Positions 41,131-61,669 of a stretch of 64,000 nt of DNA are shown here, in pieces. The notes below the pieces were generated by a model. That model saw nothing but the letters and a program-made list of their open reading frames with translations. It made no database searches and had not been told where the DNA came from. The stretch's first letter is position 1. Each line of letters begins with the position of its first letter. The stretch covers positions 1 through 64,000 of the forward strand of contig JBDKSP010000020.1 in the NCBI GenBank assembly GCA_039680575.1. The letters are read 5' to 3'. This stretch comes from Armatimonadota bacterium. GTDB lineage: Bacteria > Armatimonadota > UBA5829 > DTLH01. A program made the translations under genes and the position numbers.

Positions 41131-41181
41131 TCGCTATTACCTTCTTTCCTGATAGCAGCGAGGACACTTACCTGTGGAATG

Positions 41182-43528: not shown

Positions 43529-43541
43529 TGTCCTTCTCCCG

Positions 43542-44174: not shown

Positions 44175-44527
44175 ATGTCGCTCCTCACTTGCCGCAGCTC
44201 CGCAGCCCAGCAAGCTAAAAAGATTCTACCCATATTCAATAAACGTTATATATCAAATCCATGTAGCTTTGCTGCTGGGTTTCTTCATGATACGAAAAAC
44301 CGGATCTTTTCGATCGGATCTATCGGCTTGATCTACATAACCGCCTGGTAAATATACTAGAGTTTTAGTATATGCCCACATCCGGGTAAATATGTCCAGC
44401 CATGGATACTCACAGAACGCCGAGGCCAATATTACTAACCCATCGCACCTCCTACGAGGAAACCATGCGATGGCAGACGGGAGTGCCCCATGAATATCAG
44501 GCCATTATTAGTTAATCAACACCTGAC

Positions 44528-44908
44528 TTGAACAGCGTGCTGCGTGGTACGCTCGAAAACCAGCATTCGCGCAGGCTCCTGCTAAGGCTGATAAAACATC
44601 AGCTCAGCAGGGAGAGTGAGACTTACCGTCCCGATGACATGCCTGTACAAGCCAAGATCGACAGGCTGGACTGCCTTTCGGGACTGCTCGATGAGTTCGC
44701 TGCCAGACTCGCGGAAGCAGGTAATATCACTCCGGCCATTTCAGTTGAAGGATTCGAGACAGAGACCGATACAAGACGTGGAGAAGGGGTCCATGGGAGA
44801 ATAATGAAAGCGTTCGATGCGCTCAGAAGACACGGCGTGCCCTTTGGCGTCTCCGCCACAGCCACCAGGCACAACTGGGATGGAAGCTCTATCGAGTCCT
44901 GTGGTTAG
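44528..44908 (+). pseudogene. radical SAM gene remnant
   Basis: ISVEGFETETDTRRGEGVH…MKAFDALRRHGVPFGVSAT resembles the middle of a radical-SAM barrel, but there is no CxxxCxxC and the ORF is truncated. Confidence 0.55.
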
Positions 44909-45681
44909 CGCTTCGGCTTGCACGCGAGAAGCGCAGCTCCAAGAGCGCCGGTCATCTGCGGGTTGGGCGCTGTTTCAACCCGATGTCCCAATACCCGTTC
45001 CAGCGCTTTGTCCATTCCGGGGACAAGCGCGACCCCGCCGGTGAATACAACCGGGGGAATAACTGATTTACCAGCCATTGATGTAATTCTTGTCGCGATG
45101 GAGTTCTGGACACCAGCGACTATATCTTCCGGCGGCGTCCCCGACGCTAAAAGCCCGATAATCTCCGTTTCCGCGAAGACTATGCACATGCTGCTGATCG
45201 CTGCTGGTGTTACACTCCTCGATGCAAGCTCTCCGAGTTCAGCCAGTCCCACGCTCAAACGGTCTGCGACGACTTCGAGAAACCGGCCTGTGCCTGCGGC
45301 GCACCTGTCATTCATCATAAAGTCCTGAACGGAGCCGCCGGGGCCGAGCTTAAGGAGCTTGCTGTCCTGCCCGCCGATTTCCACTACTGTGCGTGCTTCA
45401 GGAACCACGTGGTGCACGCCGCGGGCATGGCAGGTGATCTCTGTGATCGTCGCATCGGCAATGCTGATGGTGTTTCGCCCATAGCCGGTCGCTACGATCT
45501 TTTGGACATCCTCGGAGTTGTGACTACTGTCCTTCAGGAGTTGCTCGAAAAGCTCCATTGCCAGATCATTGCTCTTTACACCCTGTCCAACCGTTCCTGA
45601 TGTGATGACCTCGTGTGTCATGGTATCCATCAGGACTATTTTTATCGCTCTTGATCCGGCATCTATTCCAACCCCGATCAT
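44905..45681 (-). CDS. ATP-dependent activator of 2-hydroxyacyl-CoA dehydratase / double-cubane protein (HgdC/BcrAD-type ASKHA ATPase)
   Basis: GIDAGSRAIK, ATGYGR, EITCHARG, EIGGQDSK, MNDRCAAGTGRF, SSMCIVFAE. Confidence 0.93.
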   Translation of the reverse strand: MIGVGIDAGSRAIKIVLMDTMTHEVITSGTVGQGVKSNDLAMELFEQLLKDSSHNSEDVQKIVATGYGRNTISIADATITEITCHARGVHHVVPEARTVVEIGGQDSKLLKLGPGGSVQDFMMNDRCAAGTGRFLEVVADRLSVGLAELGELASRSVTPAAISSMCIVFAETEIIGLLASGTPPEDIVAGVQNSIATRITSMAGKSVIPPVVFTGGVALVPGMDKALERVLGHRVETAPNPQMTGALGAALLACKPKR

Positions 45682-47048
45682 TACTTCCTCCACTCTCTTG
45701 CGGTTTCTATCAGTGCTTCTATTCTAGTCATTATCGTCGGCTGCATCGAATCTGTAAGCGGCGGCACTTCTATCTCCACCACCGGCAGGTTCAATTCAGC
45801 CTTAACGGCTCTCCCGATGACTGCGCCTTCTGTAGCGCAGTGGCTCGCTCCCGGTATCTTCGAGATCAGGACCGCTTCCGACCCGAATGCTTCGATATCT
45901 CTCATGATACGCTCTGCCCTGTCATGAGAACTCCCGACCATCGGGTCAGCGAGCGCCATCCTGGCGAGAGCCTCCATCGGATGCAAATCTTCCGGTATCT
46001 CATCCAGCGCATGCGCGAAAAGGTAGTCAGCCCCGCAAATACGGCCACCGCAGTCTTCCAACACATTCATTGCGCGCAAATCCGCGACGGGGTTTACCCA
46101 GAATATACGGACAGAATCCTCCGGCAGTATCCCAATGCCTGAGCTTATACGTTTTTGCGCTTCAGCGAGCATATCCTGAAGCACCGCGGCAGTCTCTTCA
46201 CGGTCGGAGCAGAAATGGATAGCGAACATCTCGGCAATCTGCATTTCAAGCGCAGGTATCGGACTCGATTTTGCGGTAAAGACAGCTAATCGCAGCTCAG
46301 AAAGAGTCTTCCGCGCCTTATTTGCGGCTCGGATCCCGTCCTTCAGCATATCATCACTCAGTTTATATCCTGAAAGCTCTTCAAGCGCAGTCTTGACCCG
46401 CTCCAGCTCGGATTTTACGAACGCAACCTGATCGACTGTGGCGTAAAACCCGCCCGGAAGCCTGATTACCTTTTCATTCGGACCTGGTTTCCGTCTTGCG
46501 GGCATTTCCCACCAGTTGATCGGATACCCAAGCCCTTCTACCCGCTGTGCAATGGATGAGAAATCATCACAAGTCGCCCCAACGCTGCATGTGAGCATAT
46601 CGGGAATCGGAAAATGCGCTTCGGTGACGAATGCTCCGAGCATCGCTCTCACAGGGCAGAATGATTCATCCAGCCCGTATGATGCGGCAAGGCCAAACAG
46701 ACCCTCGCTCATTTCCATAATGCATGGAGTCCACCAGGCGCCGTCCGGGTAAAATGCTACCACATTCGGCAGAGAATATGCCATCACCGGGACTGTCCCG
46801 AGGTCTTTCATGACTCCGACCAGCTTTTTACCGTTGCTTCGGGCTTCACGCAGCCGGTCTTCTTCGGTCAAAAGGAAGTTCCAGAGCCGGAGCGCGGCTG
46901 CGGAATCATCATACCTGAGCTTGAGCAGCCTGAGGTCTCCATCCTCAACATGCCTTCTGAGCGGGCCGCCATACCAGGGCTCTTTCAGACCTGCTTCTTT
47001 CAGCTCGATATAATGCCTGTCCCAGTCGCTCAAGGTAATTCCGCTCAT
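45681..47048 (-). CDS. divergent 2-hydroxyacyl-CoA dehydratase (HgdAB/FldBC) family Fe-S protein
   Basis: FCPVRAM, ATCDD, ASHC, TRIEALIE; overlaps both neighbours (ATGA, TAATG). Confidence 0.75.
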   Translation of the reverse strand: MSGITLSDWDRHYIELKEAGLKEPWYGGPLRRHVEDGDLRLLKLRYDDSAAALRLWNFLLTEEDRLREARSNGKKLVGVMKDLGTVPVMAYSLPNVVAFYPDGAWWTPCIMEMSEGLFGLAASYGLDESFCPVRAMLGAFVTEAHFPIPDMLTCSVGATCDDFSSIAQRVEGLGYPINWWEMPARRKPGPNEKVIRLPGGFYATVDQVAFVKSELERVKTALEELSGYKLSDDMLKDGIRAANKARKTLSELRLAVFTAKSSPIPALEMQIAEMFAIHFCSDREETAAVLQDMLAEAQKRISSGIGILPEDSVRIFWVNPVADLRAMNVLEDCGGRICGADYLFAHALDEIPEDLHPMEALARMALADPMVGSSHDRAERIMRDIEAFGSEAVLISKIPGASHCATEGAVIGRAVKAELNLPVVEIEVPPLTDSMQPTIMTRIEALIETAREWRK

Positions 47049-48010
47049 TTGATCGACTCCATAAAAGCCTGAATCCTCGATGATGTACGGACATCAACGG
47101 TCCCGTCGTCATTCGCATCGATCTGAGTAAACGGCAGGCCGGACCATTCCTTCAGCCGGTAAGCCTCGGCGTTCCAGTTGTCACACCAGAGGTAACGGCG
47201 AAGTATGATGCCGCGCACCCCGCGTTCAGTAAGTTTTAGCTTAAGCCACTTGAACAACTCGTTGTTCGGCCTTCTGAACGCATCGTAAATTGTGTTGAAA
47301 TAGGAATCAATAAGCGCTGACACAGGGTTTTCTTTAAGCAGCCTTCGGTCAAACGGCGCCGGAAGTGTCCTCTCACCCGTTTCGGTAGCATCCAGCGAGA
47401 CATATCCTCCGGCACTCTCGATGAAATCGTATATGTCGCACTGATTAGCTGGAATCGGCCCGCCGACAAGAGCAACCGGAACACCTGAAGGCGTGTATTT
47501 TGTATCCTGAATAGCCTGGTCGAATTTACCGGTTCTATTGAATTCCGATAAACGAAGAGCCCAATCACGGGGCGAAAGGCTTCCCTGAAGGTCACGAAGC
47601 GCAGCTCTGTTGTCGTTGTATTCGATCATCGTCTGTCTGAGTATATCTGGGGTGGGAGTGTTGCCTCCAAGCTCGATCAGAAAATCACCCAGCCGCTTCA
47701 GCTCAGAAATGTACAGCCGCTGCGCCTCGACTGTCTGCCAGGTGTGCGGGACGTGCATCAAAAACGCCGACAGATCTGTGTTTTCAGTGATGACATCGTA
47801 AATGCGTCTCATCTGGTCGCAGGCAGTTGTCACTATGACCCCGGCAGCGGTTTTCTCTTCGATGGCAGCACCTGCAAATGAGCAGGCGTAAGGACACACA
47901 CCAGGTCCCAGCTTGAGAGTCGAGCTGCCCGCCGATATTCTCGATGGTAATAGCCCATGCGCCGCAATCCATTCAGCCGGGATGAACGGACAACTGTAGA
48001 TGATCTTCAC
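47045..48010 (-). CDS. 2-hydroxyacyl-CoA dehydratase family subunit
   Basis: PAEWIAAHG, VCPYA, TACDQMRR, WCD, RIQAFME. Confidence 0.8.
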   Translation of the reverse strand: MKIIYSCPFIPAEWIAAHGLLPSRISAGSSTLKLGPGVCPYACSFAGAAIEEKTAAGVIVTTACDQMRRIYDVITENTDLSAFLMHVPHTWQTVEAQRLYISELKRLGDFLIELGGNTPTPDILRQTMIEYNDNRAALRDLQGSLSPRDWALRLSEFNRTGKFDQAIQDTKYTPSGVPVALVGGPIPANQCDIYDFIESAGGYVSLDATETGERTLPAPFDRRLLKENPVSALIDSYFNTIYDAFRRPNNELFKWLKLKLTERGVRGIILRRYLWCDNWNAEAYRLKEWSGLPFTQIDANDDGTVDVRTSSRIQAFMESIK

Positions 48011-48013
48011 GCT

Positions 48014-49270
48014 TCAGTCTCCACTGCAACCAAGCGCATTACACGCGCTTTTGACGGTCTCGAAAAGCGCTTCGACTCTTACGGCGATCCGCGCGGAGTC
48101 CGAAGGCGAATAGTCCGTCTCGATCCTTAGAAACGGGAGATGCAGCTCGTTTTCAGCAAGCTGCTTTACCCGGTATGATTCTATGCTGTAAGTAATACAT
48201 GCCTGCCATGCGAGGTCTATAATGCACTCAGCGCGGTACTGCCTCGCGAGGTCGCGGACTATATCGATCCTGCGGTTGTTTTTCGTCATCACCGAGCAAT
48301 GCAGGTTGAAATATTTTGCAGCGAGCGCGCGAACCGGGTCGTCTGCAGTAGGGTCGACATTCTCCAGGATCGGCTTCAAACCCGTGCAGTTCTCGGCGCA
48401 AACGATCAGCCCGCCGTGGTCCTCGATAATATCGACGACCCTCTCAGCCCCGTGGACCACCGGAACGCCGGTCAGAAGGACTCTTACCCTCGACGACCTG
48501 TCGCCGTTTCCTGATTGACCCTCATATAGCTTAATCGCCTTTTTATACTGCTCCAGATCGGCAGGTATTCCCGATATGGTGCTCTTCAGCTCAAGTAACT
48601 GCCGTCCGGTAATTGGAGGGCTGTCCTGCTCCATAAGCTCTGCGAGTCTGAGTCTGAGCGAGCGCTCGTGGTTCATCACTTTGATCGCTTCTCTGATCTT
48701 CTCATCTGTAATCTCTACATTGAACCGTTTTTCAAGCTCGGACTTAAGTTTTCTTAGCTCAAGCACCCAATGTTCGAATGCGTCGGCATCATCCTGCTTT
48801 TGAGGAAGCTCTATTATATATGTCGGCCTCGACTCAGCCATCAGTTCGAACATCTTCTTTTTGCCGTCGCAGGTGGTCTCAGCGATGATAAGGTCAGACA
48901 TCTCAAGAAACGGATTGGAACCAAGCGCGTGGTAACCGAATGTCGACTTGATGAGCGGACACAGGTTCGATGGCAAAACTTCTTCAGCAGCCGGAATAGT
49001 CTTGGCAGAGCCGCCGCAGAGACAGGCTGGTACGCCTCCCGCCGCCATTATCAGCTCTCTGGGGGCATACTCGCACATAATCCCGACAACCGGCCTGCCC
49101 TCGGACTTTGCCTTTTCAGCGTAATTCAGGCAGTTATCGATCATGTTATCGAACCACTTGAGTGGAGCTGTAGGACCATGCCCGGTGGAGCAGGAGACAG
49201 CGCTTGGTGGGCAGCATGGGTCGCAGTTCTCTCTAGTAACTTGCTTATTGTTACCACAGCATTTGCTCAT
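48014..49270 (-). CDS. 2-hydroxyacyl-CoA dehydratase family / double-cubane-cluster-like reductase with Cys-rich N-terminus
   Basis: GIMCEYAPRELIMAAG, LPSNLCPLIKS, ETTCDGKKK, ENCTG, ETDYS…RVEALFE. Confidence 0.85.
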   Translation of the reverse strand: MSKCCGNNKQVTRENCDPCCPPSAVSCSTGHGPTAPLKWFDNMIDNCLNYAEKAKSEGRPVVGIMCEYAPRELIMAAGGVPACLCGGSAKTIPAAEEVLPSNLCPLIKSTFGYHALGSNPFLEMSDLIIAETTCDGKKKMFELMAESRPTYIIELPQKQDDADAFEHWVLELRKLKSELEKRFNVEITDEKIREAIKVMNHERSLRLRLAELMEQDSPPITGRQLLELKSTISGIPADLEQYKKAIKLYEGQSGNGDRSSRVRVLLTGVPVVHGAERVVDIIEDHGGLIVCAENCTGLKPILENVDPTADDPVRALAAKYFNLHCSVMTKNNRRIDIVRDLARQYRAECIIDLAWQACITYSIESYRVKQLAENELHLPFLRIETDYSPSDSARIAVRVEALFETVKSACNALGCSGD

Positions 49271-49282
49271 CTTGCTTAATTC

Positions 49283-50089
49283 CTAGTCTTTCTTGCGTGC
49301 AACGAATAACCCTTGAATGATTTTACCGGCATGTGCGAGCTCTTGAATGAACATCATCTCTCCTGCCAGCGCCTTAAAGAGCTCGGTATCATAACCGATG
49401 ATCCTCAGCGCGTCGGAAGTGAGCTGCATATCGAGCATAGCGAGGTAGAGGTCTATGCACGGAGCATATCTTCCGGTATCCTCGCAAACCTGCACATCGC
49501 AGCCGTTTGCCGTGAGTAAATCACAGTAGCCGTTTGTGTCCTGCAGGTTCGGGAACTTCATGAACCACATAAAACGGTCGGCTTCGTCTTTTGTAAGGCC
49601 GGACGGACCTTCGATCCAGTCGGTGAAAGCAATCGTCCCGCCCGGCTTTACCAAACGCGCCGCTTCGGCTATCAACTGCGGCTTGTCTTCGACATAGCAC
49701 CAGGCGTCCTCACCCCAGATGAAGTCGGCTATGGAATCTGGGATCCCGCTGTTGCAGACATCAGCGAGTGTAAATGTAGCTCTATTTGAAAAACCTTCTT
49801 CTCTGCATCGACACTGCGCGCGGTTCATTACTTCCTCTGTAGCATCGACTCCGTGCATGTGCTTTACATCCTGGAACCTCAGAAGAAACCTCATTCCGGC
49901 TCCATTGCAGCAGCAGAGATCGAGCCCGAAGCCTTTTCCAGCTACTTTGGCCTTCTCTGCAAGGTCCATGGACGATTTGAACCCGCCTATGTGGATCTGA
50001 TGCCCCATAATCAGTTCCCACAGGTCGCCTACCGGACCGCTGTATACAGACTGAACGTCACATAAACCAATGCCTTGAGTGTCTTTCAT
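49283..50089 (-). CDS. class I SAM-dependent methyltransferase
   Basis: Motif I LDLCCCNGAG, GVD, RLVKPGGTIAFTDW. Confidence 0.88.
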   Translation of the reverse strand: MKDTQGIGLCDVQSVYSGPVGDLWELIMGHQIHIGGFKSSMDLAEKAKVAGKGFGLDLCCCNGAGMRFLLRFQDVKHMHGVDATEEVMNRAQCRCREEGFSNRATFTLADVCNSGIPDSIADFIWGEDAWCYVEDKPQLIAEAARLVKPGGTIAFTDWIEGPSGLTKDEADRFMWFMKFPNLQDTNGYCDLLTANGCDVQVCEDTGRYAPCIDLYLAMLDMQLTSDALRIIGYDTELFKALAGEMMFIQELAHAGKIIQGLFVARKKD

Positions 50090-50164
50090 TGCCAGTTTCC
50101 TTTCCCCTAATATTTACCTAATGAGTTTCAGGTATCGCCTGAAACTCTCCCGGAAGATTTTCTG

Positions 50165-52099
50165 CTATCGCCGAAAATCTATGAGAAGTCTTTTGTCACC
50201 ATCTCTTCTAGTGAGACAGGCGCTGTCGAAATATTCCAGAAGCGCGATTGCGTATTTCCGCGAAACCGAGAGAATGTCGCGCAGTTCGGCGGCAGTTATC
50301 CCGCCATTCGACTTGATGTATTCGACGACGGATATTTTGGCCTTCTCGAAGGTGTCTCTGTGATATGTGACCTTGTCGCTCAAGCGTATGAGCTGTCCCT
50401 GGTCGATAAGGCTTGTCATGATGTTCTTGAACACCTTTGGCGAAAGCCGCAGTTCATCCATCACATCGTCTTCGAGCGGAGTTGAGTAACCTGCCGAGAG
50501 AAATATAGACTCAATCCTCTCTGCAGCCTTCTGTTCCGCATCGGAGAGGCTCGACTCACGGTCTGCGAGTCCGAATTTATTGTCTCTTCTTACAAAAATC
50601 TTCTTCCTGTCAAGTTCCGAGGTGATTGCATCGAAGACCTGCCGGTCAGCGAGTTTCAGGAACCTGGATTGCAGGTCTGCAGCAGGCATCATTGTTTTGT
50701 AAGCGTCTTTCGAGTAATAGTCCTTGATAATATTGATCAGTTTTGCCGCAAGTTCATCGAACCTGTCTCTGTGAAGATACTTCTCTTGAGCGCCAGAAGT
50801 AACAGAGACGAGTTTTTCAACGCTGACAAGCGATTTTATGACGTCGCCAACCGCTGCCTCACGTTCACCAATGGAAAAAGCGATCTCTGAGGCATTCTTT
50901 GGCACGAACCTGGACTTAAAAAAGGCATGGTCGACTACATCGGAGATGCAACCTTCGAGTTTCTTCAGCCCCTTGATTGCCGCTTCATCGAAACGCTTAT
51001 GATGCATGGGCTGTGAGTCGAGGATTGTCCCTCCGCCGATGGTTTCCTGCGAAGAGAACGACCGTATGACAAACCTGTCTTTTGGCAGCGCGGCGGTCGG
51101 TGACTCCAGCACGAGCTGAGCATAGCCGGTTTCATCCGGTACAAGAGTTTCTGTGTCCAGAAGCACTGCCCGGCACATCACCTCGTCTGTCCCGACGTGC
51201 AGTCTGACACGTGTGCGGTTTTTCAGTTCGTCATTGTAGCTCTGAGATACGAAAAGCCGGACATCGAGAAGCGCAGTAGGGGAGAGCGAGCCGGGAGCGC
51301 AGGCGACCTGCCCTCGCCTTAGTTGATCCTTCTTCACATCCTGAAGGCTGATAGCCGTTCTTCTTCCGAGATACGACCTTTCCCTGCTCTCATTGTGGAT
51401 CTGTATTCCACGGACCCGTGCAGTTAGTCCATCCGGCATTATCTCCAGCTTGTCGCCGATATTTACTTCACCGGAGAGGACTGTTCCAGCGATGACTGCA
51501 CCGAAGCCCTGCAGCGCGAAAACACGGTCTACAGGCATTCTGAATATCCCGCTGTCCCGGCGTTTTTTGGTCTTCCCGGCGACGGAAATGAGCGCGGACC
51601 GCACTTCATCGACTCCCACTCCGGTAATTGCAGAAACAGGGATAATCGGCTGGCCTTCGAGGAATGTCCCAGCGACGAGGCTTTCTATTTCAGATTTGAC
51701 GAGGCGAATATGCTCATCATCCACGAGATCGGCCTTCGTAATTGCAATTATTCCGGTTTCGACTCCCAGAATTCGCAGAATATCGAAGTGTTCGCGCGTC
51801 TGGACATTGATTCCCTCATCAGCAGCGACTACCAGGAGCGCGGCGTTTATGTTGCTCGCACCCGCGACCATTGTCTTGATGAGCTTTTCATGCCCGGGGA
51901 CATCTATAAAGACGATCTGCCGGTCGAACCCAGGTGTTTGCATGAAGGCAAAGCCGAGCTCGATTGTGATTCCACGCTTTTTCTCTTCTGTAAGCGTATC
52001 ACAATCGATTCCCGTGAGAGCCCTGACCAAAGCTGTCTTCCCGTGGTCTATATGCCCGGCAGTCCCGATTATTGTTTGTTCAATCTCATCTGATTTCAT
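50165..52099 (-). CDS. selB: selenocysteine-specific elongation factor
   Basis: GTAGHIDHGKT, RGITIELGF, DVPGHE, TKAD; C-terminal winged helix SRKYAIALLEYFD. Confidence 0.97.
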   Translation of the reverse strand: MKSDEIEQTIIGTAGHIDHGKTALVRALTGIDCDTLTEEKKRGITIELGFAFMQTPGFDRQIVFIDVPGHEKLIKTMVAGASNINAALLVVAADEGINVQTREHFDILRILGVETGIIAITKADLVDDEHIRLVKSEIESLVAGTFLEGQPIIPVSAITGVGVDEVRSALISVAGKTKKRRDSGIFRMPVDRVFALQGFGAVIAGTVLSGEVNIGDKLEIMPDGLTARVRGIQIHNESRERSYLGRRTAISLQDVKKDQLRRGQVACAPGSLSPTALLDVRLFVSQSYNDELKNRTRVRLHVGTDEVMCRAVLLDTETLVPDETGYAQLVLESPTAALPKDRFVIRSFSSQETIGGGTILDSQPMHHKRFDEAAIKGLKKLEGCISDVVDHAFFKSRFVPKNASEIAFSIGEREAAVGDVIKSLVSVEKLVSVTSGAQEKYLHRDRFDELAAKLINIIKDYYSKDAYKTMMPAADLQSRFLKLADRQVFDAITSELDRKKIFVRRDNKFGLADRESSLSDAEQKAAERIESIFLSAGYSTPLEDDVMDELRLSPKVFKNIMTSLIDQGQLIRLSDKVTYHRDTFEKAKISVVEYIKSNGGITAAELRDILSVSRKYAIALLEYFDSACLTRRDGDKRLLIDFRR

Positions 52100-52156
52100 G
52101 TTTTTATCTATCACGAAAGCACGAAAGGGAGAAAGGAAGAAAGAACCAGTGGATGT

Positions 52157-52415
52157 CGTGCTTCGGGATGTTATCACGAAGCATATGAGATTCCTCCTAC
52201 CCTATCCCTCGGGCAGTATTTGAAATACTGCCCGGGCTGGCCAAAGAGGGATCTGTGATCCCGATCAATCAACTATAATCAATCTCCCGACATCAGAGAT
52301 GCCTCGTTTGCCTTTCCGGGAGGAATTGCAAATCCCTCCCGAGTTGGTTGCAGACCGGCCACTACTTCTATTTCCTGATTTCTTATGCTTCGAGATTTTT
52401 TCATCCCGAAGCACG
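52157..52415. repeat. composite repeat: family B palindrome, three-hairpin element (52208-52343), family B palindrome
   Basis: Reverse complement is homologous to 62604-62844. Confidence 0.85.
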
Positions 52416-52456
52416 AGTCTCCACCAAACCCGTTCCTAAATCCTGAATCCTAACTC

Positions 52457-54049
52457 CTAAATCCTATTCATAACCGACTCATAAAACATCCTGACAGGTG
52501 CGCCGCCGAAAGAGATTGCCATCCATACTGCTTCATTGATCTCCTCCTCGCTGATCCCCATAGCCCGCGCTTTCTCGATGTGGATTTTGATGCATGGCTC
52601 ACATTTAGATAGAACAGAAAGCGAGATCGCCATAAGCTCCTTCGTTCGGAGCGAAATGGCGCCGGATGCGTTAACGGCACGCATAAAGTCACCGAACTTC
52701 TCTTCTGCTGCGGATTGCACAGCTGTTTTCGTCTCGGTTGGCGCGGCGCAGCAGTCTGCACTCGTTGGCGAGCAGCAGCAAGCTCCGTCATTTGGTTCAG
52801 ACATGTTGGTAATCTCCTTCCTCACCGGGGTGTATGCCTTGACGCTGGTTCTCAAGAAGATTCTACCTTCAGATTTTGAAACGACTTTTCCTATAACTAC
52901 CGCGTGGCTCACACCTCTCGACCTGAGCTTTTCGACCAGTGCGTCGGCTTTTACCTCAGGGATAGCTATCAAAAGCCCTCCTGATGTCTGTGGGTCGTAC
53001 AGGACATGGACTATCTCTTCCGGCACATCGTTCGACACGGATACACGGCTGGAGGCATATTCGCTGTTCCTTTCGATACCGCCGGAGATGTATCCCTGTG
53101 CAACATAGTCCAAGATTTCATCGAAAACCGGCACCAGATCCGTATATATTTCTGCTGTTACGCCGCTCTGCGATGCCATCTCGCCGAGGTGTCCGAGCAG
53201 CCCGAACCCCGTTACATCCGTAGCTGTCGTGACTCCCATCTCGATCATAACCTCGGCTGCAGTCTTATTCAGCTCGGTCATGGAATTCGCTGCAGCGGCG
53301 AGCGCAGCGCCGGATGCTTTCCCCATCTGGCCGGCAAAGCTGATGATCCCGACTCCGAGCGGTTTTGTAAGCACCAATGCGTCGCCTGGCTGCGCCTTAT
53401 CGTTTGTAACGATTTTGGACGGATTGACCATCCCCGTGACGGCATAACCGAACTTCGGGTCTTTGTCGTTGACGCTGTGTCCGCCTATGATTGCGACTCC
53501 AGCCTCTCGCATTTTATCCATTCCGCCGCGCAGCATTCGGGACATTATCTCGTGGCTCAGGGTCTCGATGGGAAAACCGATTATAGAAAGCGCGGTCATC
53601 GGCTTTCCGCCCATCGCATAGACATCGCTGAGTGAGTTTGCGGCGGCTATCTGCCCGAAAGTGTAGGGATCGTCGACACTCGGTGTAAAGACATCCACTG
53701 TCTGAACGAGCGCGGTCTCATCATCGATTCTATAGACACCAGCATCGTCGCACGTATTCGTCCCGACAAGAACGCGGGGGTCCGACACTTCCGGGAGCCC
53801 TGAAAGCACCTTTTTAAGGTCATTCTGGTTGATTTTGGAAGCGCAGCCCGCCTTCTCGACGAGTGTTGTGAGGTTAACAGCGTCAACTGTCTGATCCGGC
53901 CGTTCTCCGGCGCATGGACAGATACCCTTATTTCTAAAAGTGTCGCAAGGGCAGCCCTGTTTAGGGTTACAGATGCAGTGACCGAGCTTTATGGACCGCT
54001 GCATAACGCGGCGTCTTTTTTCGATGTCTATTTTCATATCATTACTCAT
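52457..54049 (-). CDS. selD: selenophosphate synthetase (Cys form) with N-terminal Cys-rich domain and C-terminal CMD/AhpD domain
   Basis: AGCASK, DDAGV, QTVDVFTP, ANSLSDVYAMGG, GGHS, TDVTGFGLLGH, DPQTSGGLL; C-terminal KELM…CEPCIKIH. Confidence 0.95.
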   Translation of the reverse strand: MSNDMKIDIEKRRRVMQRSIKLGHCICNPKQGCPCDTFRNKGICPCAGERPDQTVDAVNLTTLVEKAGCASKINQNDLKKVLSGLPEVSDPRVLVGTNTCDDAGVYRIDDETALVQTVDVFTPSVDDPYTFGQIAAANSLSDVYAMGGKPMTALSIIGFPIETLSHEIMSRMLRGGMDKMREAGVAIIGGHSVNDKDPKFGYAVTGMVNPSKIVTNDKAQPGDALVLTKPLGVGIISFAGQMGKASGAALAAAANSMTELNKTAAEVMIEMGVTTATDVTGFGLLGHLGEMASQSGVTAEIYTDLVPVFDEILDYVAQGYISGGIERNSEYASSRVSVSNDVPEEIVHVLYDPQTSGGLLIAIPEVKADALVEKLRSRGVSHAVVIGKVVSKSEGRIFLRTSVKAYTPVRKEITNMSEPNDGACCCSPTSADCCAAPTETKTAVQSAAEEKFGDFMRAVNASGAISLRTKELMAISLSVLSKCEPCIKIHIEKARAMGISEEEINEAVWMAISFGGAPVRMFYESVMNRI

Positions 54050-54088
54050 TTATTAAAAATCATAAGAGCTCTGAGTTGACGAACACTA

Positions 54089-54153
54089 CGTCATGCTGAG
54101 CTTGACTCAGCATCCAGGAGGAAAATGGACCCTGAATCAAGTTCAGGGTGACG
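54089..54153 (+). repeat. REP-like family A copy 3
   Basis: Near-identical to 9409-9473; lies between selA and selD. Confidence 0.9.
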
Positions 54154-54185
54154 TCTTTGTTGTTCAGGTTGGTGTGTAATTTTCA

Positions 54186-55586
54186 CTAGGAATGAACCTT
54201 TTTATTAAGAATCGCACGGAGCGCGTTTGCTACGACGCTGTCTTCGTCCGGCTGGATAGTCCTGAAATCGAATAACACAGACTCATGGTGTATACGCGCG
54301 AATATCGGAGTGTCGTTGTATCTGAGTTTTTTTGCGAGCAAGTCGGCAGACATGCTCTCAGGTTTTATGCTGAGAATCTTCGTAGGCATAGTCTCGGCAG
54401 GGACGGACCCGCTCCCGACCTGTGATCTGCCATCTATTACGGATACCTCGGCTGATATGTCTCCAAGTTTGGCTGCAACGGTCAGCGCCCGTCTTTCAAG
54501 AACATCCAGCGGGATAGACAGCATTCTGTAAGTCGGATGCCGCTCCTCCAGCCTGCCGGGTTCGAGGAACAGCTTGAGCGTAGCCTCCAGCGCCGCGACT
54601 TCCATCTTTCCTACTCTGAGAGCCCTCGCGAGCGGGTTTTTCTTGATCTTTTTGATGGTATTTTCCTTGCCGACAATAATCCCGGACTGCGGGCCGCCGA
54701 TCAACTTGTCTCCGCTGAAGCAGATTGCGTCGCATCCCGCCTTTACACTTGCCTGCACCATCGGCTCAGGCTCGAGCCCGTAATTGGCGAGGTCGATTAA
54801 GGCACCGCTCCCCAGGTCGTCGATAATCGGGATGCCATGTTCCTTCGCAATGGGCGCCATCTCTTCAATAGCAGGCTCTGCTGTGAACCCGACAATCCTG
54901 TAGTTGCTCTGATGAACATGCAGGATGGCTCCGGTGTTCTCGTTTATAGCAGAAGCATAGTCCCGAAGGTGGGTTTTGTTCGTAGTTCCGACTTCGCGCA
55001 TGATCGCGCCGCTCGCCGCCATCACATCAGGCATCCGAAACGCGCCGCCGATCTCCACCAACTGTCCTCTGGAGACGATTACTTCCTTACCGGCTGCAAT
55101 TGTGTTGAGAATCAGCATTGTGGCGGCTGCGTTGTTATTTACAATGGTAGCAGCCTCAGCCCCGGTGAGTTCGCGGAGCAGTCCGGTTACATGGACATCC
55201 CGGCTGTCTCTTTGCCCTGTCTCAATACTTGTCGCAAGTGTGCAGTAGCCTTTTATAACATCACTTACCGCTTGAGCAGCCGCCTCCGAAAGCATTGCTC
55301 TGCCTAAGCCAGTATGAAGGATAATCCCTGCTGCGTTTACTGCATGCCGGATAGACGGTCTGAACCTGGCATCGATGTATTCCAGAACCATCAAACCTAT
55401 ATTCTCAGCCGATAGGTCCATCTCCGGCTTGTCTTCAGTGATGATCCGGCTGCGCAGCGTGTCCACGACTTTCCGGCATGAGTCGGCGAGAAATTCGCGG
55501 TCATGCTTATCTAGAGCAATCTTCAGCGCTTCCGTATTCATCAATTCATCTATAGCAGGCAGTTTCCGCAGGATGTCTTTCTTCAT
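54186..55586 (-). CDS. selA: L-seryl-tRNA(Sec) selenium transferase
   Basis: NAAGIILHTGLGRA, VNNNAAA, SRGQLVEIGGAFR, EVGTTN, DLGSG, FSGDKLIGGPQ. Confidence 0.97.
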   Translation of the reverse strand: MKKDILRKLPAIDELMNTEALKIALDKHDREFLADSCRKVVDTLRSRIITEDKPEMDLSAENIGLMVLEYIDARFRPSIRHAVNAAGIILHTGLGRAMLSEAAAQAVSDVIKGYCTLATSIETGQRDSRDVHVTGLLRELTGAEAATIVNNNAAATMLILNTIAAGKEVIVSRGQLVEIGGAFRMPDVMAASGAIMREVGTTNKTHLRDYASAINENTGAILHVHQSNYRIVGFTAEPAIEEMAPIAKEHGIPIIDDLGSGALIDLANYGLEPEPMVQASVKAGCDAICFSGDKLIGGPQSGIIVGKENTIKKIKKNPLARALRVGKMEVAALEATLKLFLEPGRLEERHPTYRMLSIPLDVLERRALTVAAKLGDISAEVSVIDGRSQVGSGSVPAETMPTKILSIKPESMSADLLAKKLRYNDTPIFARIHHESVLFDFRTIQPDEDSVVANALRAILNKKVHS

Positions 55587-55621
55587 TGAATGTCCCTCAG
55601 GCTATCTCAAAATTTAAAATA

Positions 55622-55658
55622 TAAAAATGGGGGCTGACGTTTCACGTCAACCCCCATA
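55622..55658 (-). terminator. rho-independent terminator ending the three-gene unit upstream of selA
   Basis: Minus strand ATGGGGGTTGACGT-GAA-ACGTCAGCCCCCAT followed by TTTTAT. Confidence 0.75.
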
Positions 55659-55696
55659 TAATACTGAATTCAGCCCGAAATAGTTGTGATAACTCA

Positions 55697-56410
55697 CTAT
55701 CTTGTCCAGATAGTATCCTTAATCTTTACCTTGAATGGGCCGGTTTTAAGTACAGGTCGAACTGTGACACGTCCTTTTACATTTGATGGTATTCCCCCGG
55801 AATACTCACATGTGCCGCCTCACCCATACTTGAACGACCCACTCCAGACCACTTTGCCCGAGCTGTTTATGACTTGGAAGCGTGGAGGATCGGTTTCTCC
55901 ATCAGATTTTTTGATTACACATTTGTTGTTGCCCTGAGCAGTAACTACGTTGAGGTCCATATTTGCCTTGTCGCCGTGCTTGGTGACTTTTATGGACGCG
56001 ATGAAAGGCGGGCCAAAATTAAGTTTCTGAGTCTTATTCGCCGAGACATCGATCTTGCGCGTATTACCAGGCGATATAGATGCGGTCCATTCCACCTTGT
56101 TCTTGTCCTTAGCTATCACGTCGCAGTTCCAGACCTCATGGCTTCCGACGGGCAAAAGCAGTACACCATTAGTTGTAGAGTATTCGGTGATTTTCCTGCC
56201 TGAGTTGCTGAACATCGTAAGGACAGCGTTCCCATGGTAAAGGAGAGTCACTTTTCCCATCTTACCTTTGTACGTTTTGGGGTCAAAGCGACTGAATCCC
56301 AGCGTACCGCTGTTGGCTGGATAGGTGGTTATACCAATTACCACCAACGCGCACACACCAGCTATAACTGATGCCATGAATTTTCTGGAGCATTTTGGAA
56401 TTGTGGTCAT
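55697..56410 (-). CDS. putative exported selenoprotein (G-U-G-G-T-C, UxxxC), 237 aa with UGA read-through
   Basis: In-frame TGA at 55820-55822 followed by 40 more sense codons to TAG; SECIS-like hairpin at 55789-55805; next to selA. Confidence 0.75.
55789..55805 (-). promoter_or_regulatory. putative bacterial SECIS element
   Basis: GTATTCC-GGG-GGAATAC; loop 21 nt after the UGA. Confidence 0.6.
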
Positions 56411-56484
56411 TCTTCTTTTCTCACCTCCTTTCGCAGTAGCATTAATGAGTCTCAGGTATTAACCGAAACGCTATAGGCGGGATT

Positions 56485-57270
56485 CTACTTGGAGCCAAGT
56501 TTTAAATGGCCGATTGGTGTGCAGTCCAGGCACCTGATGCATTCGGTGCTGTTGATGTCTTCAACCGGATCTATATCGACCGGGCATTTTTTCGCGCATG
56601 CGCCGCAGTGGGTGCACTTGTTCATCGCAAGACGCATCCTGAAAAGGGATATTCTGTTGAAAAGCGAGAATATTGCGCCGAGCGGGCAGAACATCCTGCA
56701 GAAACCGCGGGTTACGAGTATCGTAAAGATAAAGAAGGCAGCCAGAATGGAAACCCTTACGTAAAACATAAAGTTTATAGGAGTAGTCGAGTGCAAAAAC
56801 AGCCGGCGAGGAAGAGCTGATTCCAGTGTCCCGGATGGGCAGAAATTACAGAATGAGTATGGTGCGCCTGGAAAGAAAAACGGCACGGCAAATACCAGCC
56901 CGACCAGGACCAGATACTTTGTAAACCTGAGCGGCCGGGGTATCGAGAACTTCTTAACAGGAATTTTCGATAATAAGTCCTGCAGCAGCCCAAATGGGCA
57001 GACCCATCCGCAGACCAGCCTGCCAAAGAAAGAACCGATCAGTCCGAGTATCCCTAAAGTGACGAACGGGATGATCCTGAGTGTCGAAAAGTTTACGAGC
57101 ACGCCGATAGGGCAGGCAAACATAGATAGCGGGCACGAATGGCAGTAAAGCGCCGGACCGCACATGGTCTTCAGATCAAAAAAAGGAAGACCCAGGATAA
57201 CGAGCGCGATAAGCTGGCTCAGATAGCGTAATCTTGCTAGTTGTTTAGTTCTTTTGATTATGGACCCCAT
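56485..57270 (-). CDS. membrane-bound 4Fe-4S polyferredoxin (NapH/MauN-like)
   Basis: CHSCP, CGWVCPFG, FCNFCPSG, CRMFCPLG, CTHCGACAKKCP, CIRCLDC plus TM helices. Confidence 0.88.
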   Translation of the reverse strand: MGSIIKRTKQLARLRYLSQLIALVILGLPFFDLKTMCGPALYCHSCPLSMFACPIGVLVNFSTLRIIPFVTLGILGLIGSFFGRLVCGWVCPFGLLQDLLSKIPVKKFSIPRPLRFTKYLVLVGLVFAVPFFFPGAPYSFCNFCPSGTLESALPRRLFLHSTTPINFMFYVRVSILAAFFIFTILVTRGFCRMFCPLGAIFSLFNRISLFRMRLAMNKCTHCGACAKKCPVDIDPVEDINSTECIRCLDCTPIGHLKLGSK

Positions 57271-57276
57271 AATCAA
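57254..57276 (-). promoter_or_regulatory. putative SECIS hairpin that also contains the polyferredoxin start codon
   Basis: Perfect TTGATTATGG-GGT-CCATAATCAA; loop 25 nt after the UGA at 57292. Confidence 0.6.
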
Positions 57277-57285
57277 TCCTCTCTA

Positions 57286-57576
57286 TTACAGTCAAGTAGG
57301 GCATGCTTTTCCGCCGGACTTGGACTTTCCGGCCTTTTGCTTATTTGGGGATATACTCGGTTTTTCGGCAGGAGCTTCCAGTTTTCCGTCTTTACCTCGG
57401 ATAACGTCATGGGTCAGGCTGAGTTCCGTTACGGAGAGCTCAGTTTTTGAGGATTTACTCACCTCATGTTTAACAAAAAGGGTGGAATATAAGACAAACC
57501 CAGCGAAGACAATCGCTAGGACGATAAGGAGCAAAGGGCGCGCGCTTCGATATTCATCTGTACTCTGTATGGACAT
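57286..57576 (-). CDS. putative membrane-anchored selenoprotein with C-terminal C-P-T-U-L (CxxU)
   Basis: Single TM helix, Lys/Ser/Pro-rich linker, ends TGC CCT ACT TGA CTG TAA TAG; SECIS-like hairpin downstream. Confidence 0.65.
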
Positions 57577-57641
57577 ATCTAACACCTTTTACAAAATACT
57601 GCAGTTCTTCAAGGTGAAAACGAGATCTATTTAATACAGAA

Positions 57642-57670
57642 AGTTTATTCCAACAAAGAGCGGATGTCAA
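57642..57670 (-). promoter_or_regulatory. sigma70-type promoter for the selenoprotein unit
   Basis: TTGACA-N17-TAAACT on the minus strand. Confidence 0.7.
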
Positions 57671-57744: not shown

Positions 57745-57753
57745 TTGACTACG

Positions 57754-59781
57754 ATGAAAACTCCTTCCAAACCCACACATACACCTGGACTGTTCACAGC
57801 AGCGCTTGTGATCGTTGTGCTGGCTCTGGCTCCGTTCATCGGAGGCAGGGATTCGGTGATCGAGACCGCTATTTTGGCTTCGATCGCACTGATTGCTCTT
57901 GGAACGATGATTTTCAGCCGGCGGTTTAGCAACCCCATCGGTGTATGGCCGTTTGCCGTATTTGTAGGGCTTATTGCGGCATCATCCATAGTTACCGTCA
58001 GTTTCCACGCCACAATCGAACAGACTTTATACTTCGCCGCGTGTGCCGCAGCGGCGATAGCTGCATCATCGTCTCTCCGGAGCGATAAGCGGTTCATCAC
58101 TGCGCTCTTTGTGCTTACCGGAGTAGGGTTGGTGCTCGGAGCTATGGCTGTTGTAGAGTATTGGGAGTCCGGCAGCGGCTGGCGGGTGTTCGGTCCGTTT
58201 TATAACCCCGGTTACTTCGGCGGTTACCTTGTAATGGTCGTCCCCATAGCGCTTGCCGTTTTTCTCACGAGCCGGTCGGTGGCTGTAGCAGCGGGCGGCG
58301 GGCTTGCCTGGGGGTTCTCTCTCGCCGCATTGCTCCTCACCGGGACCCGTTTGGCACTTGTTTTTACTCTGTTCTCGATCATTCTTTTCTTTGTTCTTGC
58401 GATATGGTGCCGAGCAATCGGTAAAAAGCAGTTGATCCATATTGCTGTCGCAGCGCTCATCGCTTTGATAGCAATATCGTTCTGCAGATCTACTGTAGAG
58501 AGCCGTGTCGAAGGTAAAGCCGCTGCTCAGCAGTCCCATTCGTTCCCATTCAGGGTTGCGACCTGGAAAGGAACGGCGAATATAGTGCGCAAGCACCCGG
58601 TTCTGGGAACCGGCGCAGGAACATACGAGTTGGTATTCCAGAAGTATATGGTCGCGGGTTATACAAGAGTGGCTCATAACAGCTATCTCGAACTCGCCGC
58701 TGATACAGGGGTTCCCGCGCTTGCTGCAGGTGCGGTGGCGTTCGGCGTATTGTTCCTTACCGGTCTCAAAAACCTGCGCCGTGAGGATGACGAAGGTGGC
58801 AAATCCGAGCTTCTTCTGCCGCGGGGAGCAACGCTTATGGCGTGCGCTCTGGCGGCGGCGCTTGTCGGGGCGCTCGCCCGAAACATGTTCGATTCGGATA
58901 TTTACAACCCCGGAATAGGGTTCACTTTCTGGACATTGGCTGGAATACTCGCAGCCCGCGCCCCTGTTATAAAGGAAGCCAAACCATCGGCGGCGGCTCG
59001 TGTCGGGATATCCATTTTGATTGGCGCGATGATCGTCGTGTGGTCGCTTTTTGCAATGGCTAAAAGTTCGGCTGAAACGGCGGTTTTTCTGCTTCAAAAC
59101 GACGATCAACCGGGTGGTATCGAGCATCTCCGCACTGCAGTTGATTATGACCCGCTCTGCGGCGAGTACCGTATGCGGCTTGGGCAATCGCTTGTTTATG
59201 TTTCAGATGGTGATGAAGCCCAGTGGAAAGAAGGGGTTGCATCGCTTAATAAGGCTATCAGGCTGGAACCGACAAGAGCGCGGAATATGATCGCACTTGC
59301 CAGGATTTTGCGCGCAAATGGCGACGATAACGGCGCAATCCGTATGTTCGGAAAGGCGCTTATTGCGGACCCGCATGCCACACCGGCTATGGTGGCAATG
59401 GCAGACATTTGGATAAAATCGAAAAAGACACAGCTTGAGGCAGAGTTGATGTACGAGCGGCTAATAGATCAGGAAAAAAGCCCGGTCGAAGAACTCCGAG
59501 GCGTACCGGAGATTGTCAACCCGGACTATGTCTGGGCGCATTTCTATTTTGGATCGAAATATTTCTCTGAAAAAAACTGGAACGATGCAGCTAAGCAGTT
59601 CAACGCAGTGATCGAAAGGCTTGAGCTCAGAAAATCGTTCACAGTCCAGCGGCAGGCAGCAGAGGCATCAGGGATGTTCGATCCAGAAGAGGAATATGCG
59701 CTCGATGACGTGTTGCAGCGTTCAAAAGGCGGGCTTGCCAAGGCAAAAGCGAATGAAGTGAGGGCAGACGATGCCCGCTAA
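57754..59781 (+). CDS. O-antigen ligase family membrane protein with C-terminal TPRs
   Basis: GPFYNPGYFGG, LTGTR, R…W…HPVLGTGAGTY, AHNSYL; TPR-like C-terminus. Confidence 0.88.
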   Translation: MKTPSKPTHTPGLFTAALVIVVLALAPFIGGRDSVIETAILASIALIALGTMIFSRRFSNPIGVWPFAVFVGLIAASSIVTVSFHATIEQTLYFAACAAAAIAASSSLRSDKRFITALFVLTGVGLVLGAMAVVEYWESGSGWRVFGPFYNPGYFGGYLVMVVPIALAVFLTSRSVAVAAGGGLAWGFSLAALLLTGTRLALVFTLFSIILFFVLAIWCRAIGKKQLIHIAVAALIALIAISFCRSTVESRVEGKAAAQQSHSFPFRVATWKGTANIVRKHPVLGTGAGTYELVFQKYMVAGYTRVAHNSYLELAADTGVPALAAGAVAFGVLFLTGLKNLRREDDEGGKSELLLPRGATLMACALAAALVGALARNMFDSDIYNPGIGFTFWTLAGILAARAPVIKEAKPSAAARVGISILIGAMIVVWSLFAMAKSSAETAVFLLQNDDQPGGIEHLRTAVDYDPLCGEYRMRLGQSLVYVSDGDEAQWKEGVASLNKAIRLEPTRARNMIALARILRANGDDNGAIRMFGKALIADPHATPAMVAMADIWIKSKKTQLEAELMYERLIDQEKSPVEELRGVPEIVNPDYVWAHFYFGSKYFSEKNWNDAAKQFNAVIERLELRKSFTVQRQAAEASGMFDPEEEYALDDVLQRSKGGLAKAKANEVRADDAR

Positions 59782-61460: not shown

Positions 61461-61630
61461 GGTAACTCAAGAAGTTATGATTGAGATACCGGGGTGGAGG
61501 GGCTAGCTATGCTTCTGCGTCCTCTGACAAGGACGACAGCGTCCCGAAGACATCCCCCACCTCCATATAAGCGTCAATTGGAATATTGCGGCTCCTAGTG
61601 GAGACCGACTATCACGCAAGCAAACGCTCG
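61461..61630 (+). ncRNA. putative IS110 bridge RNA
   Basis: 5' stem-loop at 61461-61490; target-binding loop at 61491-61564 with TATGCTTC and GTCCCGAAG matching the insertion target; second stem-loop at 61571-61627. Confidence 0.75.
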
Positions 61631-61669
61631 TGGAGATCCACCCCGAACTACAAGCGAGGTAATTATAGC

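Follow-up and report, generated by a model that had tools for sequence, protein, structure and literature searches.

A multi-phylum selenoprotein gene cluster of an Armatimonadota genome with two predicted, apparently uncatalogued families

Gene content of the cluster

The 64,000-nucleotide stretch analyzed here (the window; forward strand of contig JBDKSP010000020.1, our contig C20) comes from a 2.97-Mb Armatimonadota genome that is 97% complete. It contains eleven open reading frames (ORFs), all on the minus strand, that run from position 57576 to position 44905. These encode, in order, a small membrane protein ending in a CxxU motif (U, selenocysteine [Sec]), a membrane polyferredoxin, an exported protein with a UxxxC motif, the Sec machinery proteins SelA, a SelD fusion and SelB, a class I S-adenosylmethionine (SAM) methyltransferase, three HgdAB-family proteins and an HgdC-type activator (Table 1). 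All eleven genes and their order are exactly as given in a preliminary description of this DNA. That description had the Sec machinery bracketed by the two UGA-containing genes; since both lie upstream of selABD, it is not. The analyses below indicate that the selenoprotein system encoded here is real and spans several phyla; its general kind is known, its architecture is unusual, and two of its families appear not to have been catalogued.

Proteins of the window were assigned to families by profile scans against NCBIfam (release 20) and Pfam, which matched selA, selB, the SelD core, the activator, the three PF06050 proteins, the class I methyltransferase and the Fer4_5 membrane protein. When UGA was read as cysteine, neither the small membrane protein nor the exported protein matched any Pfam or NCBIfam model.

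Table 1. Positions of the cluster genes, associated signals and proteins found beside related genes
Feature	Position	Strand	Remarks
Sigma-70-like promoter match, 5' of first gene	57642..57670	-	10/12 consensus positions; pattern match only
Small single-pass membrane protein ending C-P-T-U-L; predicted selenoprotein (CxxU tail)	57286..57576	-	TGA at 57294-57292
SECIS-like hairpin of small gene	57254..57276	-	Overlaps polyferredoxin start codon; single-sequence z-score only -1.7
Membrane polyferredoxin (Fer4_5, NapH-like)	56485..57270	-	PF12801, E 7e-16; TIGR02163, 59.5 bits, below cut-off
Exported, membrane-anchored protein with Ig-like UxxxC domain; predicted selenoprotein	55697..56410	-	U197; family-wide TGA; AlphaFold2
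SECIS hairpin within coding region, 17-34 bases past UGA	55789..55805	-	Covariation in 62 relatives
Terminator-like hairpin between UGA genes and selA	55627..55657	-	14 pairs plus T-run
selA, selenocysteine synthase	54186..55586	-	TIGR00474, 558.7 bits, cut-off 267.9
selD fusion	52457..54049	-	TIGR00476, 380 bits; TIGR00778, 45.9 bits; PF02627
selB, Sec-specific elongation factor	50165..52099	-	TIGR00475, 353.9 bits, cut-off 242; likely start 52099
Class I SAM methyltransferase, tight unnamed family	49283..50089	-	PF08241
Double-cubane cluster protein (DCCP), 418 residues	48014..49270	-	NF040772, 416.6 bits, cut-off 350
HgdAB-like subunit with three conserved Cys	47045..48010	-	PF06050; C39, C64, C276 in 34-35/35
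HgdAB-like subunit with six invariant Cys and highly conserved N-terminal extension	45681..47048	-	PF06050; C109, C131, C154, C160, C280, C404 in 29/29
HgdC/DCCP-R-type ATP-dependent electron activator	44905..45693	-	TIGR00241, 268 bits, cut-off 125; likely start 45681
Carboxypeptidase-regulatory-repeat proteins of related loci	L049-L051, L054, L276:12328-14766, L279:6095-8518		Beside Ig-domain genes

The exported UxxxC protein

The in-frame TGA of the exported-protein gene (55822-55820) lies in the context F-K-Y-G-U-G-G-T-C and is followed by a predicted Sec insertion sequence (SECIS) hairpin. A word-index search recovered only three relatives of this protein, one of them 87% identical and from Armatimonadota, whereas a profile search of 1.84 billion database representatives yielded 404 clusters (at 50% identity). 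Among the best 150 of the 404 representatives, 137 terminate at the U column, as judged from protein records, 12 continue past it, with Cys or a different residue in its place, and a single one does not extend that far. Within Armatimonadota, 43 matches were found in 33 of 301 genomes; 41 carry one in-frame TGA, one carries Cys, and one ends short of the U column. selA is present in 30 of the 32 TGA-type genomes (156 of 301 overall), the remaining two have selB, and the sole Cys-type genome (G185) has neither selA nor selB. Cys at this column also occurs in P0085 and in 4 to 5 of 12 full-length representatives.

A sample of 201 genomes of a Planctomycete class was searched with a Cys-coded profile and therefore without selection for TGA. 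The UxxxC domain was present in 44 of these genomes, in up to 13 paralogues per genome, and 131 of the 135 matches contained one TGA. Scanning species genomes for the motif identified 103 stretches, of which 80 were listed and 23 more had little flanking sequence. Nine of the 80 listed loci were chance matches within short frames and were dropped; the true members among the 80 belong to Armatimonadota, Verrucomicrobiota (including Lentisphaerae and Kiritimatiellia), Planctomycetota and Sumerlaeota.

The SECIS hairpin has seven pairs and lies 17-35 bases from the UGA; across 62 selected sites, 82% of the cells were paired, 34 cells showed two-sided changes, and none of 500 shuffles equaled this result. 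The aligned rows are kin and partly pattern-selected, and sliding the pairing by -2 raised the covariation score while lowering the paired fraction (68% versus 82%). RNAalifold returned no structure for 115 unfiltered sites, and the pairs were then counted on 62 of these. A genome-wide scan for UGA, Cys motif and hairpin returned 103 sites, most of them spurious, and failed to detect the paralogue on contig C47, so that the hairpin by itself does not discriminate. Taken together, the UxxxC family combines a conserved in-frame UGA, a downstream SECIS, Cys homologues and a UGA confined to Sec-decoding genomes, and this UGA is almost certainly recoded as Sec. A general reading of TGA as Trp was rejected, as many window genes end in TGA and the in-frame TGA falls at a single Cys-aligned column.

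AlphaFold2 modeled the exported protein as an anchor helix followed by two beta domains (mean pLDDT of 84.9), with U197 and C201 flanking an inter-strand turn. The Sec domain matched the C-terminal region of PorU (Z 8.7, rmsd 3.0, 92 aligned residues) and an MG domain of alpha-2-macroglobulin (Z 8.5, rmsd 2.5, 75 aligned residues), and the protein is predicted to consist of a membrane anchor and immunoglobulin (Ig)-like sandwiches. Foldseek returned only generic two-sandwich matches (TM-scores of at most 0.32), no solved structure was matched by sequence, and queries of the ESM Atlas with natural homologues that lack the UGA turned up Planctomycetota clusters and weak leads to Ig-like proteins only.

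Several further members of the family were observed. The genome studied here encodes a second one of ~470 amino acids with an in-frame TGA (C47:9097-10524, plus strand), unlinked to the cluster. In two related loci, the Sec domain lies inside proteins of 953 and 663 residues (L276:9391-12252 and L279:4036-6027), and these read-through products are coherent, with signal peptides and F5/8 plus LamG domains or multi-transmembrane (multi-TM) tails. Since the Sec domain is internal to such long fusion proteins, databases split each into two genes. Long ORFs at L074:3470, L125:10055 and L137:5215 carry C-P-T-U-G-G-G-G followed by a hairpin of the Ig-family type and could possibly be a third variant uniting both Sec motifs. 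Finally, in two phyla, long Ig-domain genes have as neighbors genes for exported carboxypeptidase-regulatory-repeat proteins of ~800 residues, whose ends appear redoxin-like by eye and which are possible electron acceptors.

The small CxxU protein and the polyferredoxin

The small protein has one TM segment (residues 15 to 33) and is encoded directly upstream of the polyferredoxin. For 44 distinct polyferredoxins, the sequence extended 450 bases or more upstream, and we examined the preceding gene of each. In 25 loci it encodes a TM protein ending in C-[PK]-T-TGA, in 17 a short TM protein ending in CxxC-[IV]GL, and in 2 neither was within reach. All 25 of the TGA-type frames continue for one to three codons and then stop; by comparison, about half of the selA, selB and selD ORFs of related loci have TGA as their stop codon. 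In each case, a hairpin lies 3' of the small-gene UGA. It overlaps the next start codon in some loci, and in relatives with a more distant next gene it is found at a similar distance from the UGA with a different sequence. We regard recoding of this UGA as Sec as very probable.

No C-P-T-C form, which would be a direct Cys homologue, was found among the 44 loci, and the CxxC protein, which takes this place next to distant polyferredoxins, is a positional analogue only. A scan of three of the CxxC proteins showed a resemblance to CD1871A (NF040920; E values of 3e-7 to 8e-5; 22 to 30 bits, below the cut-off of 32), whereas the small CxxU protein gave no match to this model at an E value of 1.

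In the polyferredoxin, roughly four TM helices are accompanied by two CxxxCP motifs, a pair of ferredoxin-type Cys clusters and an additional CxxC...CP...CP and CxxCP set; 16 of its Cys residues are invariant across 13 relatives. Its hydropathy and charge suggest that the two CxxxCP motifs and the two ferredoxin clusters lie inside, with the six-Cys set outside, adjoining the tail of the small protein. The putative electron path from polyferredoxin to surface Sec centers that the preliminary description had put forward fits this hydropathy, the Cys motifs and the predicted fold of the exported protein.

Sec machinery and selenium use

The SelD fusion consists of an N-terminal Cys-rich domain (H-C-x-C...C-P-C...C-x-C), a Cys-type SelD, a Cys-rich linker and a CMD/AhpD domain with a CxxC motif. 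This architecture is conserved, and the N-terminal domain, which has a six-Cys-like pattern, contains five invariant Cys residues. In the 39 genomes picked by motif, SelD was found in 38 and its N-terminal extension in 32. The N-terminal domain had no sequence match in Pfam, NCBIfam or the PDB; its Cys spacing is suggestive of a possible likeness to the catalytic domain of ferredoxin:thioredoxin reductase, which has a CPC/CPC/CxC Fe-S and disulfide motif. The AhpD domain most resembles the AhpD parts of the ArsM/AhpD and MduS selenoproteins (50.7 and 37.1 bits, respectively). One match to the N-extended SelD (G303:C256:2669-3991) has three in-frame TGA codons and is perhaps a multi-Sec form of the fusion.

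The tRNA-Sec gene of the genome lies outside the window (C111:6101-6197, minus strand), whereas a scan of 25 related loci placed tRNA-Sec inside the cluster in 12, two of which represent one and the same contig. A non-exhaustive search of this genome detected no in-frame TGA in a molybdopterin enzyme, MvhD, HdrA, six thioredoxins or five peroxiredoxin-like matches, and SelU and YqeB were not found. Given that these five usual selenoprotein families lack TGA and that neither SelU nor YqeB was found, the Sec machinery of this genome seems to serve the UxxxC and C-P-T-U families.

Methyltransferase and reductase genes

The nearest solved relatives of the methyltransferase are phosphoethanolamine N-methyltransferases (E 2e-14). 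Its 120 best matches are at least 67% identical, and a Cys triad in the SAM-binding loop (C59, C61, C131) is present in all 120. The family has six well-conserved Cys residues and a WGEDAWCY motif. Identity with ArsM was rejected (NF008823, 34.6 bits versus a cut-off of 263), and the protein is also well under the SDMT and MduS cut-offs.

All three proteins that had been described as HgdAB-family members belong to PF06050. Only the first qualifies as a double-cubane protein in the strict sense; the second and third reach 83 and 71 bits against NF040772, below its cut-off of 350, and have three and six conserved Cys residues. The seven Cys ligands of the DCCP align with those of 7yyl and 6eno at spacings of 18/18/29/160/29/32, slightly under the published motif. 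C66, C85, C104, C134, C295 and C325 are conserved in 47 of 47 sequences, and C358 is conserved in 46 of 46. Judging from its three conserved Cys residues, the subunit encoded at 47045..48010 likely carries one open-site [4Fe-4S] cluster, and that encoded at 45681..47048 is likely the catalytic one. The assignment of the last gene to HgdC-type activators held, as its product exceeds the cut-off of the TIGR00241 model, and its C131 and C170 are conserved in 29 of 29 sequences. Membership among benzoyl-CoA reductases (BCR) or 2-hydroxyacyl-CoA dehydratases (HAD) was rejected, as the family scores fall far under the BCR and HAD cut-offs.

Linkage across genomes

Although co-orientation is by itself weak evidence, the conservation of these genes across phyla far exceeds chance. 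Synteny is kept in ten loci of Armatimonadota, and the methyltransferase, the DCCP, the two HgdAB-like subunits and the activator recur with Sec genes in Planctomycetota and Verrucomicrobiota. The linkage of the methyltransferase/reductase block to Sec genes, which the preliminary description had proposed, therefore holds in other phyla. We assembled a methyltransferase-centered set from the best 80 of 589 metagenome loci, 34 of which have at least 6 kb of flank. Reductase genes occur in 61 of the 80 and a Sec-domain or sel gene in 38; the latter rises to 24 of the 34 long loci, and all four reductase genes are present in 19 of 22 loci with a long downstream flank. In the Planctomycete class sample, a Sec domain is present in 21 of 23 genomes with the methyltransferase versus 23 of 178 others, and none of the four methyltransferase-encoding Armatimonadota genomes is without one. 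Ig-domain genes often lie directly upstream of the methyltransferase gene in the same orientation. Of the 39 motif-picked genomes, 26 encode the methyltransferase. The whole gene set, in shuffled order, occurs in G449, G435, G428 and G498; in G449, one contig of 4.25 Mb carries all of it, suggesting that the organism may be tractable.

Recurrent neighbors of the methyltransferase loci encode a DUF3034 barrel (26 of 80), an SsuA-type ABC transporter and a PNPOx-like protein. Aquaporin-like, CobW-like, TauE, cysteine-synthase-like and homocysteine-synthesis genes adjoin the methyltransferase at loci without Sec genes. Four loci (L194, L195, L232 and L244) have the methyltransferase and the DUF3034 barrel without reductase or Sec genes, and some of these lie near CobW-like, aquaporin-like or TauE genes. 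Unrelated double-cubane/activator pairs (30 to 41% identity) adjoin the cluster in L041, L044 and L135.

Transcription and flanking genes

The 358-base gap between selD and selB (52100-52456) contains palindromes, and a same-genus genome has a gap of similar size with another sequence, which suggests mobile repeats. Since this gap is not conserved and a terminator-like hairpin precedes selA, a single transcript for all eleven genes is doubtful. The methyltransferase/reductase block is optional and probably transcribed separately. At the Rfam gathering score, a tRNA-Ser was the sole match in the window.

Downstream of the cluster, a short plus-strand ORF (44528-44908), which resembles a fragment of a radical SAM protein, converges on the activator gene. 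Genes for an invertase/GDE-type glycoside hydrolase, a GT4 glycosyltransferase and a PIG-L deacetylase follow on the minus strand (38608-44213), together with an ORF that is presumably P-type ATPase-like; this region is not kept beside the cluster in relatives. On the other side, a divergent plus-strand gene encodes an O-antigen-ligase plus TPR protein (57745-59781) and has an 11/12 promoter match upstream, and the product of a plus-strand ORF at 61586-62491 resembles an IS110-family transposase.

Relation to known systems

In DsbD, electrons pass from tDsbD to cDsbD and on to the Ig-like nDsbD. The arrangement proposed below would work similarly, with an Ig-like domain bearing the redox pair that receives electrons from across the membrane. 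It differs in its Fe-S membrane protein, separate polypeptides and Sec, and nDsbD is not among the 50 fold matches listed. The small protein and polyferredoxin resemble the pairing of CD1871A with a 4Fe-4S membrane protein, in which a small TM protein with a C-terminal redox motif is likewise encoded directly 5' of the same polyferredoxin family. Here, however, the motif is CxxU rather than CxxC, the linker is longer and has a conserved middle motif, and NF040920 is not matched. The methyltransferase shares the class I fold of phosphoethanolamine N-methyltransferases (5wp5, 3uj6), aligning over its full length with their PEAMT domain, but differs from these enzymes and from ArsM in the Cys triad of motif I and the WGEDAWCY motif.

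A link between double-cubane proteins and selenium is already in print: 955 of 970 double-cubane proteins were reported from genomes with SelD, and the SAO locus was described, in passages of 10.1101/2022.07.06.499078. Like the SAO locus of Haft and Gwadz, the present cluster is a multi-selenoprotein neighborhood of anaerobes with an adjacent NF040772 protein and activator, and some of its relatives add an ABC transporter that is distantly SaoX/SaoP-like (27 and 140 bits, below the cut-offs). It is unlike SAO in its other selenoproteins, its in-cluster Sec machinery, membrane polyferredoxin and methyltransferase, and its occurrence in other phyla. Membership in SAO was rejected, as no Sao model (SaoX, B, P, A, C, L, T, E or D) matched any of the eleven proteins.

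The reductase genes share with Carboxydothermus DCCP/DCCP-R (6eno, 7yyl) and BzdNO a seven-Cys double-cubane subunit and an ATP-driven activator, and their three-Cys open-site subunits are as in BzdO and HadB. They differ in having three distinct subunits, one activator gene and no recurrent CoA-ligase or aromatic pathway genes. Parts of PMC11971306 describe the double cubane of BzdNO as storing electrons for an open-site cluster, and sections of PMC5322559 and PMC10418091 place dehydratase/activase genes near sel genes. The periplasmic polysulfide/selenite reductase MccSep/ExtKL carries Sec on an Ig-like domain, according to portions of 10.1101/2025.11.18.688581; an extracytoplasmic Sec on an Ig-like domain is likewise predicted here. 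In contrast to MccSep/ExtKL, the exported protein has no CxxCH heme motifs and no NCBIfam match, its resolving Cys lies four residues on, and its electrons would be supplied by Fe-S proteins rather than cytochromes.

Neither UGA-containing family is recognizable in Table 1 of PMC13188914 (2026, 119 families), although its supplements or Deng et al. (2026) could list them, and neither is among the new families in the sections of PMC12013277 consulted. No description of this gene set was found in the literature searched, in which Haft and Tolstoy (2025) was covered via a review table and NCBIfam only.

Proposed pathway and alternatives

The gene content, the conserved UGA and SECIS, the cross-phylum linkage and the seven-Cys motif are established at the level of sequence; the fold is predicted, and we infer sidedness, electron path and substrate. 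Our preferred reading, held at a confidence that approaches but falls short of even, is a Sec-armed export of electrons across the membrane combined with a cytoplasmic arm in which a compound, probably one that contains Se or S, would be methylated and reductively cleaved at the expense of ATP. Low-potential cytoplasmic electrons would be taken up by the two ferredoxin clusters of the polyferredoxin, whose Cys motifs would carry them across the membrane. The flexible C-P-T-U tail of the small protein would accept them, like the CxxC tail of CD1871A-like proteins, and reduce the selenenyl-sulfide of the Ig-like UxxxC domains. These domains may in turn cleave S-S, Se-S or Se-Se bonds in an extracellular substrate, much like MccSep, whose Sec on an Ig-like domain acts on polysulfide and selenite, and the product could be imported by the often-linked DUF3034 barrel or the SsuA-type ABC transporter. 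Inside, the methyltransferase would methylate a heteroatom, and the activator, the double-cubane protein and the two open-site subunits would carry out an ATP-driven one-electron cleavage in a BzdNO-like layout, while the extra SelD domains may keep selenium reduced for selenophosphate synthesis. The double-cubane/SelD correlation, the MccSep precedent and, at methyltransferase loci that lack Sec genes, the neighboring cysteine-synthase-like, homocysteine-synthesis and TauE genes all point to a chalcogen. The broader claim is put forward with clear reserve: a widespread and undescribed Se-based pathway for extracellular redox chemistry in anaerobes of the Planctomycetota, Verrucomicrobiota and Armatimonadota. 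In it, an Fe-S wire and a CxxU arm would feed a large, expandable Sec-Ig family, and this line would be joined to a double-cubane reductase of three subunits and to a methyltransferase, both acting on an organo-Se/S compound.

Several observations weigh against this proposal. Hydropathy and charge are the sole basis for the membrane sidedness, the Ig-fold matches are generic (best Z of 8.7), and no gene or residue that would define the substrate was found at the loci examined. The terminator-like hairpin at 55657-55627, which would split the cluster, is retained in two relatives. The genomes used for co-occurrence are kin rather than independent, so that the counts overstate the association. 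The methyltransferase occurs in just 4 of 301 Armatimonadota genomes and its block is absent from 28 of the 32 TGA-type ones, and 10 of the 34 long methyltransferase loci have no Sec gene; the dedicated system of the preliminary description is thus not supported in the form of a single obligatory one. An Ig-domain gene is missing from G206 and G260, which do encode the small protein and the polyferredoxin, while most f18 and f32 genomes have Ig-domain genes with no close polyferredoxin. Finally, the many paralogues on very diverse scaffolds, lectin-like or multi-TM, fit a general envelope redox role equally well.

Such a role is central to an alternative that we consider somewhat unlikely, namely that two loosely coupled modules, a general DsbD-like reductant line to envelope proteins (redoxins and lectin-bearing proteins) and a separate methyltransferase-reductase for a metabolite or cofactor, cluster only through their need for selenophosphate or shared regulation. 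The separation of the two arms in many genomes, the many paralogues with diverse fused domains, the redoxin-ended repeat proteins and an AhpC/TSA protein beside Ig-domain genes, and the unrelated double-cubane/activator pairs at three loci all favor it. However, the methyltransferase is rarely without a Sec domain (2 of 23 genomes in the Planctomycete sample and none of four in Armatimonadota), and the Ig-domain genes are often immediately 5' of it and co-oriented. The preliminary description had instead read vicinal Cys tracts as a sign of a metal(loid) substrate. The methyltransferase triad is indeed well conserved, whereas the tracts at the DCCP N terminus and in the SelD linker are variable in sequence and the enzyme is not an ArsM, so that such a substrate is only a possibility. 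In its full form, this explanation has surface U/C pairs bind or reduce As, Sb, Hg or Te, the Cys-triad enzyme add methyl groups, and the AhpD domain together with the ATP-driven reductase return the metalloid to its reduced state from one round to the next, and it appears unlikely. It draws on the likeness of the SelD AhpD domain to ArsM/AhpD and MduS, the six well-conserved methyltransferase Cys residues, the SAO precedent and the aquaporin-like and CobW-like genes by a few methyltransferase loci, but those are the loci without Sec genes, the ArsM score is far too low, and no ars, mer or efflux genes are among the recurrent neighbor families.

If the cluster served only to scavenge selenium, with external Se mobilized and fed to SelD, the tight linkage to selABD and often selC, the extended SelD of most motif-picked genomes and the double-cubane/SelD correlation would be accounted for. 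Since the non-exhaustive search of this 97%-complete genome found no other Se user, however, the system would gather selenium only for itself, and we judge this improbable. That the UGA codons are true stops followed by vestigial similarity is hardly credible: Cys homologues are few (1 of 33 genomes; 4 to 5 of 12 full-length representatives) and the hairpin of the small gene, overlapping a start codon, could serve translational control, but the near-invariant TGA, the conserved downstream frame and fold, the covarying SECIS and the strict co-occurrence with selA or selB bear out the Sec reading of the preliminary description.

Significance

The two apparently uncatalogued families would enlarge the bacterial selenoproteome. 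Their members have stayed hidden because UGA is annotated as a stop, as seen in the many database records that end at the Sec column. The UxxxC family is of further interest for its Ig-like, rather than thioredoxin, fold and its unusual expansion of paralogues. The cluster makes several questions accessible to experiment: why double-cubane proteins co-occur with SelD, which cellular substrates they reduce, and what is passed across the membrane by CD1871A-type/polyferredoxin pairs. If the proposed pathway is true, it would provide the first selenium-linked physiological reaction for double-cubane proteins.

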